This document shows positions 19,398 through 24,913 of a stretch of DNA of 64,000 nt, in pieces (within the stretch, counting starts at the first letter, position 1; every line of letters starts with the position of its first letter). The translations under genes were made by a program, and so were the position numbers. This stretch comes from an uncultured bacterium (lineage in GTDB: Bacteria > Chloroflexota > UBA5177 > JANWHV01). The notes under the pieces were generated by a model. The model saw only the letters and a program-made list of their open reading frames with translations. It ran no database searches and was not told where the DNA came from. The stretch spans positions 1,536,001 to 1,600,000 of the forward strand of contig CAWHAE010000012.1 in NCBI GenBank assembly GCA_963827235.1. The letters run 5' to 3'.

Positions 19398-19703
19398 CAC
19401 GGAGCGTCTACGCCCGAGAGGCGCGGCGCGACGATGGGCATCCATGGCGGCTCTGGAATGGGGCATCCAGCTGCGGGTGTCGTAGCACCATGTACATGAT
19501 GTTTGGACCTTGGACTTGATGGCAAAGCCGCACAGCAACCTTTGACGGCCACGAGCGTGAACGTCGTGGGACGCCACAGCGACACGACTCAGCTGGCGAG
19601 GAACAGCTTCGGAGGCACTGAAAGACGTTGACCCGCCGTAGGTGCCGAGCTACTCTGTACTACAGAACGTGTTGCACCGATGGCGATGAGGGGACGGGGA
19701 GCG

Positions 19704-19994
19704 ATGGCAGCAGGAATCACCACCAGCATTCGCATGCCTGAAGAGATTCGGGAGATGTACGACATCCTCGCTCAAGCCACGGGACGGGCCAAGAACGACC
19801 TCATGGTCGAGGTCTTGCGCACCGAAGGTCAGCGACGACTCGATGAGATCGCACTAATTCTCGAAGGGCGCGAGCAAGCGCGCAGTGGAAGGTTGTCACC
19901 CCTCAACGATGTGGTGCTCCGCCTCAAGAGCAACGGTATGCTACCCGCAGACTTCGAACTGGATTCGGATGACGATGACTCAGGGTCAGCGTGA
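19704..19994 (+). CDS. Putative ribbon-helix-helix antitoxin
   Basis: TTSIRMPEE..LAQATGR RHH pattern, acidic tail, 4-nt overlap with the downstream toxin. Confidence 0.8.
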   Translation: MAAGITTSIRMPEEIREMYDILAQATGRAKNDLMVEVLRTEGQRRLDEIALILEGREQARSGRLSPLNDVVLRLKSNGMLPADFELDSDDDDSGSA

Positions 19995-20290
19995 AGGTTC
20001 AGCTCACCGCGGCCGCAGAAGCGGATCTCGCCGGCATCTACACCTACTGTGCTCGTCGGTCAGGACCGGTTGCCGAACGCGTCCTGGGTGCGATCCTACG
20101 GGCGATCAACGGACTCGCCCGCTTCCCATTCATGGGCAAACCGGGAGATGTGCCTGAAACGCGCGAACGCGTGGTGGTCCGCTACCCATACCGCATCGTC
20201 TACCACGTGAATGAACGCCTCCAGATGGTAGAGGTGTGGCGCATCATGCCTCCTGGACAGGACTGGCCGCCCGCTGAGACTGACGGCTAG
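19991..20290 (+). CDS. RelE/ParE-family toxin
   Basis: AEADL..I, LARFPFMG, TRE.VV.RYPYRIVY, VEVWRI. Confidence 0.88.
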   Translation: MKVQLTAAAEADLAGIYTYCARRSGPVAERVLGAILRAINGLARFPFMGKPGDVPETRERVVVRYPYRIVYHVNERLQMVEVWRIMPPGQDWPPAETDG

Positions 20291-21025
20291 ATCCTCGACC
20301 TATTGAGCTTGCTGAGTGCATCCCTTGTGGCCGACTCTCCGAACGCGCCCTTTGCAGTGTTGCCTCCGCTCGCAACATCGGTGCTAGCCGCCTTGACCAC
20401 AGTCTTGGCGAGCACTGGCAGAGCTGCGAAGCCAGAAAGAGGAGACGCCTGGTTCGTTGACCCGCCGTTGGCGTCTGGGTTGACCGCCTGGTACGCCTTT
20501 TGCGCCTCCTGCGTGAGCTGTGCAGTGCTCGGCACTGGTGGCGGCGGTACTGAGAGTGTGGGCTGCCACAGCCCGAGCGAGAGCGGTACTGCCGCCGGCG
20601 CGTCGATGCTCTGCAGCGCGGCGCTCTCCGCCTGTACCGTCGATGAAACGACCGAGGTCGTCGGCACGGTGCTCTGGGCCATCGGACACACGCCGTCCAC
20701 CATGTTGGACCGGCAGGACATCATGCCTGTCTTGTCGTTGTAGTCCACCGGGTCGTCGCCTGCGTACGCGTAGGTGAAGATGCCCTCCTGCTGGCTGGGG
20801 TCCGGCTGCCGGGTACCCGCTCGCGGGTGTCGCTCCAGCACCGGGTCATACGCCCGCGTGGCCATCCAGTACCAGCCCAGCTCTTGGTCGTACCAGGCGC
20901 CGGCGAAGCGCAGGCGTTGCGGCACGTGCTCGCTGCTGCTTACGACCTTGCCCCAGAGGTCATACGTGTAGCGGTCCACCGTGTTGCCGGTGACGTCGGT
21001 GAGCGCGATCACGTTGCCGCGGCCG
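20287..21025 (-). pseudogene. Orphan Rhs module (core C-terminus plus truncated toxin tip)
   Basis: YTYDLWG, RFAGAWYDQELGWYW, RAYDP, QPDP, DDPVDY nearly identical to 21652..23625; starts abruptly at GRGNVIALTD; tip ends shortly after KGAFGE. Confidence 0.85.
20809..20832 (-). repeat. In-frame palindromic micro-insertion in the orphan Rhs module
   Basis: CGACACCCGCGAGCGGGTACCCGG (RHPRAGTR) stands where the paralogue has CGGTTCCTG (RFL); net +15 nt. Confidence 0.75.
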
Positions 21026-21290
21026 GCTGGCTACCGCATGGCGCGCAGGACCAAACTAGCACGTCAATCCTCTAGCTTGCCGGTTAACCAACATGTGGCG
21101 ACCATGCCTCGAGTCGTTCGCTGCCCAACGCACAAGAGGATATCCCAAGCTCCATCTACATGCGCCTGATGCCAACGACGGGAGTGCAGGCGGGAACCCG
21201 AACACAGAACGGACTATCAAGAGTGGCATAACCTGAGGCACTCCTGGCATCGCCCGAAGCTATCCAGCACTGCGGCTCACGGCGTCGCTC

Positions 21291-21629
21291 CTAGCCAATC
21301 TCCAGCACCACGGCCACGCCAACCACACGCGAACCCTCGCACATCTCGAGTCGGTCTCCCACCGCGACTGAACGCCAGAACTCAGGGCAGACGGGGCGCA
21401 GCACCGCAATGCCGCCTCCTCCCGGCGGAATCTCACTTGTGCCCTCCAGCCTGAGCGGTGCGTCGTGGTAGTGTTTCTGCCCGTCACTGGTGTATCGGCC
21501 CAGCCAAAACGCCGCCCGGTATCCGTGGAACACGGGACCTCGCCGCCCCCCCTCATCCGTTGGCGTGACAACTAGATGAACGCGGACCCGAGCCGGGCCA
21601 TCCCGCCTAGCATCTTCCAGCGCTGCCAC
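21291..21629 (-). CDS. Stand-alone EF-Tu domain-3-like protein in the immunity position after the Rhs toxin
   Basis: DEGGRRGPVFHGYR..F, PG and GDR...EGSRVVG..VV match EF-Tu C-terminal motifs (DEGGRHTPFFKGYRPQF..PG..GLRFAIREGGRTVGAGVV); no G domain; GGAG upstream. Confidence 0.8.
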   Translation of the reverse strand: MAALEDARRDGPARVRVHLVVTPTDEGGRRGPVFHGYRAAFWLGRYTSDGQKHYHDAPLRLEGTSEIPPGGGGIAVLRPVCPEFWRSVAVGDRLEMCEGSRVVGVAVVLEIG

Positions 21630-21651
21630 TCTGCTTGGCCCCTTCTCCAGA

Positions 21652-23646
21652 TCAGGGTGCGGTAAAGCCTACGATGGTGATCAGTGACTCGGAGTTCATC
21701 CGCGCGAGCTCGGACGCATCCACAGATACCGCCGGCATACCATCTGCAGCAAAGTGTACATATGACGACTCCAGCGCCGAAGGCACATCGACTCTCACCG
21801 TGAAGAATGACTCTCCTCCCTGGCTGTACAGCATGCGGCCGAACCGCGCCGCATTCGCCGCGGAAGTTGCAAAGAGCTTGCCCTCATACGACAAGCCTCT
21901 GGGTTCGGCCCTGAAGCCTCCATTAGCTTGGATGTCCTGCGCCTCTTTGACGCTCACGACCCGATACAGTGTGGTAACCTGGGTGCCGTCCGCCGACACC
22001 TCGTTGAAGTCCGCAAGTGCTCCTGGATTCACCGTGGCATCCAGGATTACACCATCGACCGATGTTCCAGTTGAAGTCTCGTCACCTGCATCGTCGCCGC
22101 CCCCGCCCTCGCCACCACCGCCGCCGTTGGGTGGCAGCGGCGCGCCAATCGGCCCGTCGCATGCGGCGCTTGCAGACACGCCACCGGATACTGAATCGTC
22201 GATCGGACATTCACCCTCCGTCTGCGCCGCGCTCGTGGTCGTTGATGCCGGATGGAAGACGGCCGGCTGCGACGGGGCGAACTCCCGTACCGCCAGCGGC
22301 TGAACAGCCGGTGGCGCCGCCGTCATCACAGGCGCCACCGGCGCCACCGGCGCAGGGGCGTCGATGCTGGCAATCGCGGTGGTGATGGCCGCCGCCGTGG
22401 TCGAGGCAACCTCGCGCACCGGTACCGTGCTGAATGACGTCGGGCAGACCCCATCCACCATGTTGGCCCGGCACGCCATCATGCCCGTGTTGTCCTGGTA
22501 GTCCACCGGGTCGTCGCCCGCGTACGCGTACGTGAAGATCCCCTCCTGCTGGCTCGGGTCCGGTTGCAGGAACCGCTCGAGTACCGGGTCGTAGGCGCGC
22601 GTGGTCATCCAGTACCAGCCCAGCTCCTGGTCGTACCAGCCGCCGGCAAAGCGCAGGCGCTGCGGCACGGTCTCGCTGCTGCTCACCAGCGCGCCCCACA
22701 GGTCGTACGTGTAGCGGTCTACCGTGTTCCCGCTCACGTCGGTGAGCGCGATCACGTCCCCGCGGCCGTCCACCTCGTACCAGTAGCGGTTGGTGACGGC
22801 GCCAGCGGTGCGGATGAGCTCCAGCGGCGTGCCGTCCCGCCGGTAGAGATAGGTGTCGGTGGTGTTCTGGCTGCCGCTCGTCGTCACCTGCGCGAGCTCG
22901 CCGCCCCGGTACTGGAAGCTCTCGCTCAGGTTGGCGCCGCCCCCGCTCGCCGCGTACGTCATGCGCTGGCCGGCCGCGTTGTAGGTCATGCTCACGCTCA
23001 GGCCGCTGGCCTTGACTACGCTACCGAGCCGTCCCTGGGCGTCATAGAACAGGCACGTGGTACCGGTCGCGTCGCAGCCGGACTGGGCCGTGGGGCCGAT
23101 GCGCGTGGCGTGTCCGCTCTGGTCGTACGAATAGTAGGTGCTTGCGCCGCTGGTCGTCGTGCTGGCCAGCTGGTTGGCGTTGCTCGCACTGTAGGTATAG
23201 GTGGTGGTCGGGCCGCCGTTGCTGGTGCTGCTGGTCAGGTTGTCGCCCTGGTTGGCGTAGGCCCAGCTGCCCGTCACGCCCGTGCCGGTGGCGCCGGTCA
23301 GGTGCCCCAGCGCGTCGTGCGTGATGGTGAGCGTGTTGGTGGTGGTGCCGTTCACCGTGCTGGCCAGGCTGTTCGTCCAGCCAGCCTGGTCGTAGCCATA
23401 GGTGTAGGTGTTGTTTAGCGGCGAGCTCACCCCCGTCGGCCCCACGGCATCCACGTAGGTGGTGCGGCTGGCGCCGTCGTACTGCCCGTGCTGGTTGACG
23501 CTGCCGGGCAGGCCGATCGTGGTGGGCAGGTCGTTGGCGTTGCGCGTGATGCTCGTAGCGTAGGTGCCGTCGGAGATGCCGGTGGAGAGCCCGGCCGCGT
23601 TCAGAGAGAGGCTCACCGTGCTCACGCCCGGCGCCGCCGTAGTAAG
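21652..23646 (-). pseudogene. Rhs/YD-repeat protein, 5'-truncated, with ADP-ribosyltransferase-like C-terminal toxin
   Basis: YD repeats (YDGASR, YDQAG, HDALG, YDAQGRL), Rhs core, tip TTLYRVVS..E..DI..G..EGKLFATS..VRVDVP; begins mid-repeat just after an in-frame TAG. Confidence 0.85.
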
Positions 23647-23903
23647 CGTCTACGCTCGAGAGGCGCGGCGATTCCGGTGTGAAGAACCGCGCGATCGCCC
23701 CACCGGCGGCTGCCGGCAGCATGCCTGCATCGCGTCGCAGAAATCGACCGGATCTCCTGTGCCGCGCGATGTGAGGCGGCCGGGAACGTGCTACGATGAT
23801 CCAGCCGGGATCGCCGCATTCACGGTGCGAGTGGCATCTGGCCGGCTGTTCCCGGGGACCAGGCTGCTCAGCCGTTGCCGCCTTGGCACGTACTGGAGGA
23901 ACG

Positions 23904-24913
23904 ATGAACTCGTACGAGCGCGTGATGTGCCGGTTGCGTGGCGAGCCCGTCGACCGTGCACCCAACTTCAACATCTTCATGAGTTTTGCCGCCCACCACA
24001 TCGGCCAGCCGCTCTCGCGCTACTACCTGGACTACCACGTGCTCTGCGAGGCGAACCTTGCCGTGCTGCATGACTTCTCGCTGGATATCGTCACCACCAT
24101 GTCGGACGCCTACCGCGAAACGGCAGACTGGGGCGCGGCGATCGAGTTCCCCCCGACGCGCTGCCAAAGAGCATGACGCCGTTGCTGCAGGACCTCACCG
24201 ACGTGCGCCGGCTCGTCTCTCCCGATCCCCGTACGGGCAGGCGGATGAGCGACCGGGTGCACGCCGTGCGGCTCTATCGCGAGCAAGTGGGCGGCACGGT
24301 GCCGATCATGGGCTGGGTGGAAGGCGCGCTGGCCGAGACCGCGGACCTGCGCGGCGTGTCCACGCTGATGATGGACCTACACGACAATGCCGAGCAGGTC
24401 GAGGAAGTGCTCGAGCGCTGCACCGAGAACGCCATCGAGTTCGCCCGCGTCCAGGTGGAGGCCGGCGCGGACATCATCGGGCTGGGCGATGCCGTTGCCT
24501 CGCAGATCTCGCCCAAGATGTACCAGCGGTTTGCCCTGCCCTACGAACAGCGGATCTTCGCGGCGGTCCGCGCCATGGGCGTGCTGGCGCGCCTGCACAT
24601 CTGCGGCAACATCACCAGGATCTTGCCCTTCGTGGCGCAGTGCGGAGCCGACATCATCGACGTCGACTGGATGGTCGATCTGGCCGCGGCACGCGAGATC
24701 TGCAGCCCCGCCGCGGTGTGCGGCAACTTCGACCCGGTCGCCGTGATGCTCCAGGGCACGCCCGACACGGTGCGGCAGGCAGTGACGCACGCGCTGGACC
24801 TTGGCGGGCCACGCTGCTTCAGCATGGCCGGGTGCGAAATTCCCGAGGGTACGCCGCACGCCAACCTCCTCGCACACGCCCAGGCGCTGCGGGAGTACGG
24901 CGGCGCCGCTTAG
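23904..24913 (+). CDS. Uroporphyrinogen decarboxylase / MtaA-CmuA methyltransferase-family protein, frameshift in a C6 run at 24149-24154
   Basis: ORFs 23904..24176 and 24173..24913 join as IEFP(P)DALPKSMTP; LHICGN and GCEIP metal-binding motifs. Confidence 0.85.

Follow-up and report, generated by a model that had tools for sequence, protein, structure and literature searches.

An Rhs Gene Followed by a Stand-Alone EF-Tu Domain 3 Homolog

We analyzed a stretch of 64,000 nucleotides (nt; hereafter the window) of contig CAWHAE010000012.1 from an uncultured Chloroflexota bacterium (assembly GCA_963827235.1), in which the gene for an Rhs/YD-repeat protein is followed by a short open reading frame (ORF) of 112 amino acids (aa) that is homologous to domain 3 (D3) of bacterial elongation factor Tu (EF-Tu). 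Both genes are located on the minus strand (Table 1). Judged from sequence comparison, the two genes probably constitute a polymorphic-toxin module, in which the C-terminal tip of the Rhs protein would be the toxin and the 112-aa protein its cognate immunity protein.

The Rhs ORF is organized as YD repeats, an Rhs-associated core domain, a low-complexity linker and the C-terminal tip. The protein matched PF05593 (RHS_repeat) with E 1.2e-8 in Pfam, and TIGR03696 aligned over its complete length (profile positions 1-76 of 76) with 72.1 bits against a cut-off of 32.5. At the end of the core, the shell of the Rhs protein gives way to its variable C-terminal part, and the part after the core differs from that of the paralogs. 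The DGVILDATVNP segment of the linker is common to the window Rhs and a relative from a metagenome (L049). The stop codon of the Rhs ORF occupies 21652-21654, and the GTG start of the small ORF is located exactly 22 nt 3' of it. The run GGAGAAGGGG ends 9 nt before this GTG and, from its sequence, is likely to be a ribosome-binding site. The open frame of the small ORF is at most 125 aa long. Its public gene call is an 80-aa form that begins at residue 33 (P0002) and would lose the first strand and the GGR motif; the alignments of relatives begin at about residue 10-15, which favors the 112-aa start. A first-pass annotation of the window, made by a model from the letters alone, had described a 112-aa ORF 22 bp after the Rhs stop on the same strand, and its coordinates and every motif that it quoted were correct.

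Table 1. Features of the Rhs locus (positions in the window).
Feature	Positions	Strand	Basis
Rhs/YD-repeat protein, 657 aa, 5'-truncated orphan copy	21652..23625	-	ORF list; stop-to-stop maximum 665 aa
Rhs-associated core domain, aa 307-382, ending ...AGDDPVDYQDNTGMM	22480..22707	-	NCBIfam TIGR03696
Pro/Ala- and Gly/Asp-rich linker from core to tip, aa 383-545	21991..22479	-	Translation; L049 alignment
Candidate toxin tip, about 110-112 aa, unnamed family	21655..21990	-	Tip alignments; no Pfam, NCBIfam or PDB match
Intergenic spacer, 22 nt, with purine-rich run GGAGAAGGGG, likely ribosome-binding site	21630..21651	-	Sequence reading
Stand-alone EF-Tu domain 3 homolog, 112 aa, candidate immunity protein	21291..21629	-	GTG start at 21629
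Second, shorter Rhs C-terminal fragment (orphan, 241 aa), whose C-terminal part differs	20287..21012	-	TIGR03696, 56.5 bits

The 112-aa Protein Is Homologous to EF-Tu Domain 3 in Sequence and Fold

By sequence profile and by fold, the 112-aa protein is a true homolog of EF-Tu D3. Its translation carries DEGGRRGPVFHGYR..F, PPG and GDRLEMCEGSRVVGVAVV. Searched alone, it matched PF03143 (GTP_EFTU_D3) with E 0.0026 and 18.5 bits, which is under the gathering score of 27, and residues 17-111 aligned to positions 309-394 of EF-Tu in the NCBIfam EF-Tu models (E 0.001-0.007). A phmmer search of the PDB returned 46 matches, of which 42, the top 41 included, were EF-Tu (E 0.003-0.42). The two EF-Tu genes of the genome itself are located on other contigs and are 34% identical to the ORF over residues 18-108. 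In an exhaustive HMMER search of 1.84 billion representatives, the family comprised 405 clusters (counted at 50% identity) at E<=1e-3, mostly of 100-130 aa, and 119 clusters were left at E<=1e-10. When a profile of 107 family members was compared with the PDB, EF-Tu D3 was matched with E 1.7e-13; bacterial EF-Tu gave values of 1e-13 to 1e-9 and mitochondrial EF-Tu only 3e-4, and no other translational GTPase was found in this search at E<=0.01. PF03143 was matched by 45 of the 107 members at E<0.01 (best 1.8e-9).

The AlphaFold2 (AF2) model of the ORF, built with the family alignment, had a predicted local distance difference test (pLDDT) score of 93.5. All Foldseek matches of this model in the PDB, among the matches listed, were EF-Tu, with a root mean square deviation (rmsd) of 1.3-2.8 Å (most 1.3-2.1) over 99-107 columns and 20-28% identity. 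The G domain and domain 2 are absent from the frame, and its upstream neighbor is the Rhs gene. Profile, model and fold comparison thus bear out the likeness to EF-Tu D3 without G domain or domain 2 that had been noticed in the first pass.

Ten positions are near-invariant in the family (G27, G28, R29, Y37, P69, G70, P79, W85, E98, and G99), and nine of these are EF-Tu D3 motif positions (GGR, GYR, PG, P, EG). The exception, W85, is part of a PE-x-W insert that is absent from EF-Tu, and the family has about nine inserted residues compared to EF-Tu. The ORF shares with EF-Tu domain 3 the β-barrel fold (rmsd 1.3-1.8 Å, about 26% identity) and the GGR, GYR, PG, and EG-R-VG motifs, and differs from it in standing alone, in the PE-x-W motif and in being encoded in toxin cassettes and mobile DNA.

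The Tip and the D3 Gene Occur as a Pair

The tip family was found in seven distinct loci (the window; L007, which equals L054 and L062; L049/L050; L053; L063; L064; and L065) from Chloroflexota, one Actinomycetota metagenome-assembled genome (MAG) and metagenomes, and a D3-like ORF is located directly downstream of the tip in all seven. The relatives of the tip were reached via the D3 gene first and then with tip profiles. The D3-like ORF starts a few to about 25 nt from the end of the tip, or overlaps it. Six of the paired ORFs scored 148.5, 118.3, 116.2, 68.3, 52.5, and 30.9 bits with the hidden Markov model (HMM) of the D3 family, and the L065 frame, which was outside that scan, matched PF03143 with E 0.0011.

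In another Chloroflexota genome (L007), the homologous tip stands at the end of an Rhs fragment and has an in-frame TGA (read as X), and the D3 gene follows 8 nt after it. Two metagenome records (L049/L050) hold a 175-aa ORF which is 57% identical to the tip and contains the pre-tip segment DGV-LDATVNP; its D3 gene (P0004), 5 nt further on, is the closest D3 relative, and the L050 pair adjoins integrase and transposase genes. In a Nocardioidaceae MAG (L053), a 314-aa membrane-anchored protein ends in the tip and overlaps a 115-aa D3 gene. Directly upstream of this pair, a genuine Tox-ART-HYD1 protein (E 1.6e-28) and a DUF6881 gene are encoded, which in turn follow a large Rhs gene. The tip profile gave five matches in all over 401 Chloroflexota genomes, with three further loci: L063, where the tip comes after a PT-HINT domain (Pfam E 5.7e-6), and L064, where it is shorter, both with a D3-like ORF downstream, and L065, where a remnant of the tip is left, its first ~30 residues being fused by a deletion to a frameshifted D3 frame. 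Over 401 Actinomycetota genomes, the tip profile matched the center genome (L053) only. None of the results draws on three genomes of the Chloroflexota sample that are flagged as unpublished (G173, G271, and G343).

Delivery contexts differ among the loci (Rhs core in the window and L007, PT-HINT in L063, a membrane-anchored protein in an Rhs array in L053) and the pair is constant, as is characteristic of polymorphic toxin cassettes. Two loci keep the D3 gene next to a decayed toxin (the in-frame TGA in L007 and the deletion in L065). From pair to pair, the identities of tip/D3 to those of the window decrease in parallel (57/48, 39/32, 34/36, 29/23, and 23/20%), and the identity of the paired D3 proteins goes down to 17-23%. 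In the 401 Chloroflexota genomes, all five non-EF-Tu D3-like ORFs identified, among the matches listed, sit behind a tip. Across genomes and delivery contexts, the D3-like gene thus lies directly downstream of the tip on the same strand and co-occurs with it, as expected for a toxin-immunity pair, and the proposal that the ORF is the cognate partner of the tip stood in seven of seven loci.

Six other short-frame D3 matches in Chloroflexota were rejected, as all six, when checked, were EF-Tu C-termini at contig ends. Short-frame matches at contig edges (G170:C26, G080:C64, and G270:C7) were left out of that check.

Predicted Complex of Tip and D3-Like Protein

The window tip and the 112-aa ORF were folded together without alignments and reached an interface score (ipSAE) of 0.56 (three runs, 0.55-0.57), compared to 0.00-0.01 for three control pairs. 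In the complex, the pLDDT was 86 for the partner and 85-87 for the tip, and at least 90% of contacts were common to the runs. In the calibration of the tool, the mark was reached by 51 of 78 solved complexes, compared to 2 of 108 mismatched pairs. Among scores not above 0.60, only 5 of the 78 solved complexes passed, compared to all 4 passing mismatches of 180. The modeled complex passes weakly (0.01 for the best control). With gene order and co-occurrence as a strong prior, we counted the predicted complex as modest positive evidence.

The Tip Represents a Family Without a Recognized Catalytic Domain

The tip of the window Rhs reads TTLYRVVSVKEAQDIQANGGF...EGKLFATS...VRVDVP...ADG, and eight residues are invariant in six tips (L28, R30, V32, E36, I40, S54, F60, and A67 in the numbering of a 132-aa tip). 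Searches of the PDB with the single sequence and with a profile of four tips gave chance-level matches only (rhamnosidase, ABC transporters, TRPC5; E 0.3-2). Word-indexed homolog searches with the ORF and the tip returned the window's own proteins only, and a tblastn search of plasmids with the tip gave nothing at E<=1. Tip and D3-like protein belong to families for which no description was found, and the tip, in which R, E, S, and F residues are invariant, would be a small toxin domain of a new kind.

An ADP-ribosyltransferase (ART) fold had been expected for the tip in the first-pass annotation from an R / F-x-T-S / acidic pattern. The arginine of this pattern is invariant and an invariant glutamate follows six residues later. 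The T62-S63 of FATS is replaced in four of six tips (G for S in L053, R-N in L007, L-S in L063, and P-T in L064) and no catalytic acid could be placed: with respect to the R-S-E arrangement of ARTs, R30 is invariant, but the C-terminal half of the tip contains no invariant acidic residue. The tip had no match in Pfam, NCBIfam or the PDB; the TreTu_C HMM (PF24691) did not match it at E<=10 in a search of its own genome, nor did this HMM give any match above cut-off in the 401 Chloroflexota genomes. Tox-ART-HYD1 (PF15633) gave no Pfam match for five tips, and hhalign of the tip alignment against the HYD1 domain of L053 returned a probability of 0.24%. A single-sequence AF2 model of the tip had a pLDDT of 39.5, and its low-confidence order of elements (strand, helix, loop, strand, helix, strands) is compatible with TreTu. 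In the ESM Atlas, feature neighbors of the tip were unnamed 117-aa clusters (0.90-0.95) and Tox-ART-HYD1 (0.86-0.92). The Atlas model of the L049 relative (predicted template modeling score 0.63) had unnamed 100-117-aa clusters as structural neighbors, with template modeling (TM) scores of 0.84-0.86 by row, and in addition a PT-HINT cluster (TM 0.51/0.56) with TreTu_C in 10% of its members. An ART-like fold is therefore a possible lead only, to which we give somewhat less than even weight. A 19-bit TreTu_C match in a congener genome was rejected, because the protein is secreted and not a toxin and neither a tip nor D3 lies in its vicinity.

Two known toxin families are closest in kind. TreTu is an Rhs ART of ~100 aa with R6 in strand 1, the essential E12 in helix 1, S25 in a loop, H31 in strand 2 and F41 after strand 2 (PMC9825190). 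Like the module described here, TreTu/TriTu of the main Rhs of Salmonella Typhimurium consists of a ~100-aa Rhs tip and a small immunity gene directly downstream. Both R6 and E12 of TreTu are reported there as essential (PMC9825190), and R30 and E36, invariant in the six tips, have the same +6 spacing. The +6 spacing of S25 and H31 is likewise that of S54 and F60, a conserved serine and then a β2 ring residue. Unlike in TreTu, no equivalents of H31 and W68 were identifiable in the tip, and PF24691 does not match. The immunity protein TriTu is described in the same source as an alpha/beta lid (a five-stranded sheet and two helices; PMC9825190), not an EF-Tu-like barrel. Tox-ART-HYD1 (Zhang et al., 2012; PMC3482391) is also a ~100-aa toxin domain, carried by Rhs or HINT proteins of Actinobacteria and other groups. 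The start of this domain, L-F-H-Y-T...G-I-L, resembles L-Y-R-V-V...D-I of the tip, with the difference that HYD1 has a histidine where the tip has an arginine, and its immunity protein is Imm-My6CBD or DUF6881, whereas the partner of the tip is D3-like. A BECR-type RNase was considered as well, by analogy with the EF-Tu-dependent CdiA-CT and SRLase1; the tips have no conserved histidine, and an RNase fold would be a possible alternative.

A Cognate Toxin-Immunity Pair Is the Most Probable Explanation of the Locus

Taken together, the gene position, the pairing in seven of seven loci, the D3 homology and the weak support from the predicted complex make a cognate toxin-immunity pair the best explanation of the two genes. 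The toxin domain would be formed by the last ~110 aa of the Rhs protein, and the 112-aa ORF would be a free-standing β-barrel derived from bacterial EF-Tu domain 3. We infer that the ORF binds and neutralizes the tip, most likely 1:1 in the cytoplasm by covering its active or target-binding face, so that the producer and its kin would be protected; other Rhs immunity proteins act in this way. The tip would most likely be a small enzyme acting in the cytoplasm, and the best guess for its class is a minimal ART-like fold in the size class of TreTu and Tox-ART-HYD1. Rhs toxin-immunity cassettes are well known; the immunity partner in this one would be a part of a core translation factor that has been exapted. 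The pairing would also be the first functional context for the D3 family (about 405 clusters), whose members are labeled only EF-Tu-like or hypothetical in databases. A D3-like immunity protein is most likely of a previously undescribed kind: none was found in the literature, where the supplementary lists of immunity families (Zhang et al., 2012; SRLase1 Dataset S1) could hold one, and the accessible text of Zhang et al. (2012; PMC3482391) has no mention of EF-Tu or elongation factor.

Several observations weigh against this explanation. Seven loci are few, and five of them come from one phylum. The truncated Rhs protein of the window may never be delivered, the catalytic family of the tip is not recognizable, and the ipSAE of the predicted complex lies in the weak band (tool verdict, 'weak support'). 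In 301 Actinomycetota genomes searched at E<=1e-18, five D3-like matches were obtained, of which four are without a tip and only that of the center genome (L053) has one. In the three of nine plasmid records with D3 genes that were inspected, all from Streptomyces, the D3 gene is located among integrases and transposases with no adjoining toxin gene listed. D3 also occurs in fusions, in 4 of 28 long members with DUF5063 and otherwise with DUF6968, DUF3466, Mrr_cat, and pP_pnuc_1 (a pPIWI-associated nuclease). In the neighborhoods inspected, the tip family came with D3 in all seven loci, and stand-alone D3 is not generally tied to tips.

The first-pass annotation had suggested immunity by mimicry of the target. 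On this account the tip would dock on domain 3 of the victim's EF-Tu, whether for modification of EF-Tu or because EF-Tu activates or guides the tip, and the ORF would be a high-affinity decoy that fills the docking site. The appeal of this idea is that polymorphic toxins have EF-Tu as a partner time and again, several of them binding or needing it. TreTu ADP-ribosylates EF-Tu (PMC9825190), CdiA-CT NC101 binds EF-Tu domain 2 (PMC5737660), SRLase1 needs EF-Tu for cleavage of the sarcin-ricin loop (bioRxiv 10.64898/2026.09.18.752725), and Serratia Rhs2CT needs EF-Tu for entry (bioRxiv 10.1101/2025.10.28.685041). Like the tip, CdiA-CT NC101/EC869, Tse6, Serratia Rhs2CT, and SRLase1 are small C-terminal toxins of interbacterial weapons, and as EF-Tu is involved in their action, EF-Tu surfaces are recurrent docking sites. 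The profile search of the PDB, in which the ORF family was closest specifically to bacterial EF-Tu D3, the nine of ten near-invariant positions that belong to EF-Tu D3 motifs, and the TreTu_C-containing cluster among the Atlas structure neighbors are consistent with a decoy too. However, the known toxins use the G domain (helix D and the P-loop in the case of TreTu) or domain 2 of EF-Tu, no use of domain 3 is reported for any of them, and the immunity proteins of known EF-Tu toxins have unrelated folds. EF-Tu serves the EF-Tu-dependent toxins named above as a host factor, and their immunity proteins can bind together with it. The residues common to the ORF and EF-Tu comprise glycines, prolines and buried pairs, which is what would be expected for fold determinants, and the ~9 inserted residues and the near-invariant W85 are foreign to EF-Tu. 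The divergence of the paired D3 proteins, too, is more easily reconciled with co-evolution with the toxin than with adherence to a conserved target. We therefore consider a decoy unlikely, and we regard it as similarly improbable that such a decoy arose by duplication of the target's domain 3 and evolved into a tight non-productive binder. On that reading, the hundreds of orphan D3 genes, those on plasmids and in defense-type fusions included, would be a general 'EF-Tu bait' module with which cells counter toxins, and perhaps also proteins of phages, that seize EF-Tu. If a decoy were nevertheless at work, the locus would be a clear case of immunity via a duplicated target domain, with EF-Tu domain 3 as a toxin docking site.

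The D3-like protein might instead be an accessory factor, either a chaperone or stabilizer of the tip before export or a translation rescuer that acts after the damage, for example by binding tRNA or EF-Ts in the way of EF-Tu domain 3. EF-Tu itself stabilizes or escorts some toxins, according to the reports on them, and the tipless D3 genes on plasmids suggest a stand-alone function. Retention of the D3 gene beside a broken toxin (L007, L065) speaks against a chaperone, which would not be retained there, and position, size and co-variation match those of immunity genes. Chaperone genes of Rhs effectors are, moreover, usually located upstream. An accessory role is thus very improbable, and a cognate immunity protein accounts better for the D3-like gene.

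The Wider Family of D3-Like Proteins

Beyond the paired loci, D3-like proteins were found in other arrangements. Three of the four tipless D3 genes of Actinomycetota encode ~195-aa proteins with a helical N-domain, and the fourth follows a PIN-like gene. The nine plasmid records, from Streptomyces, Kitasatospora, and Nonomuraea, likewise have D3 as the C-terminal half of ~195-aa proteins. The fusions and tipless copies indicate that the fold clearly has other uses too, or that many copies are orphan immunity genes; D3 genes on mobile DNA fit orphan immunity genes, and other roles are also allowed. In the fusions, the D3 module may be a binding or sensor module of defense-type proteins, or the fusions may be poly-immunity proteins. 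A literature search on DUF5063 returned nothing relevant.

Six loci with Streptomyces-type proteins of ~195 aa (L036-L038 and L057-L059) share a conserved helical N-domain with a weak hint of TPR_14 (E 0.0016). Their D3 is degenerate, with GGR and GYR replaced, and the genes, on large linear plasmids and on chromosomes, have tyrosine recombinases and transposases as neighbors. D3 forms an N-terminal module in the longer proteins P0077, P0107, P0144, P0096, P0048, and P0123. Among the fusion partners, the pPIWI-associated nuclease scored E 5.2e-12, Mrr_cat E 9e-4, DUF5063 down to E 4.5e-17, and DUF6968 E 1.9e-10.

In the L053 array (positions 1-2693), the full Rhs gene has a tip of its own (...VSIYKASQPGLTSRH...) followed by a 122-aa ORF. 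This ORF gave a borderline match to the S1 RNA-binding domain (PF00575, E 2.3e-4, 21.9 bits versus a threshold of 22), and would be a second translation-type fold in the immunity position of the same array.

The Rhs Gene Is a Truncated Orphan in an Rhs-Rich Genome

The frame of the 657-aa Rhs protein is closed 8 codons upstream of its start, and its first residues align inside the 914-aa frame of a paralog on contig 9. The window Rhs is therefore a 5'-truncated orphan, and the full-length shell with an N-terminal trafficking region is missing. Of the Rhs toxin gene described in the first-pass annotation, YD repeats, core and tip are present, but a full effector is not. The genome comprises 8.0 Mb in 21 contigs, and the window Rhs is one of many Rhs pieces in it.

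Orphan rhs C-terminal modules serve as rearrangement reserves downstream of main rhs genes in Chromobacterium and Salmonella (PMC13617354). The arrangement in the window resembles such modules, with truncated fragments that keep the core end, tip and immunity gene, two of them in tandem. It differs from them in that the window is without an upstream full-length rhs gene, the related full-length genes being located on other contigs. The orphan copy could act as a recombination reserve for these full-length genes elsewhere in the genome, and the immunity gene would remain useful on its own.

At least 25 Rhs-core matches were found in the genome, on contigs 7, 8, 9, 10, 12, and 15, frames of 2896 and 3039 aa among them. 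Several tandem orphan arrays are present, for example on contig 10 at 205-213 kb, and the Rhs repertoire is unusually large for this phylum sample.

The second Rhs fragment in the window begins ~280 nt downstream of the 112-aa ORF and shares 86% identity over aa 285-392 with the Rhs protein upstream. Its tip ends ~20 residues into an apparent toxin-domain start (GAFGESATRDALSKLN), as if cut by a cassette, and the fragment terminates exactly where a ParE-like 99-aa ORF terminates. The latter belongs to a two-gene pair on the plus strand (19680-20290) that converges on the Rhs array; by eye, its 104-aa ORF resembles a ribbon-helix-helix antitoxin and the overlapping 99-aa ORF a ParE/RelE toxin. 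The gene upstream of the 657-aa Rhs ORF is divided over two overlapping frames on the plus strand (23796-24176 and 24173-24913), which suggests a frameshift or an assembly error. By eye, its product resembles an enzyme of the uroporphyrinogen-decarboxylase/MtaA type.

The window is G+C-rich, with values of 0.60-0.71 around the site. Over the tip and immunity stretch (21200-22200) the G+C content dips to 0.61-0.63, compared to 0.65-0.70 in the flanks, as expected for an exchanged cassette.

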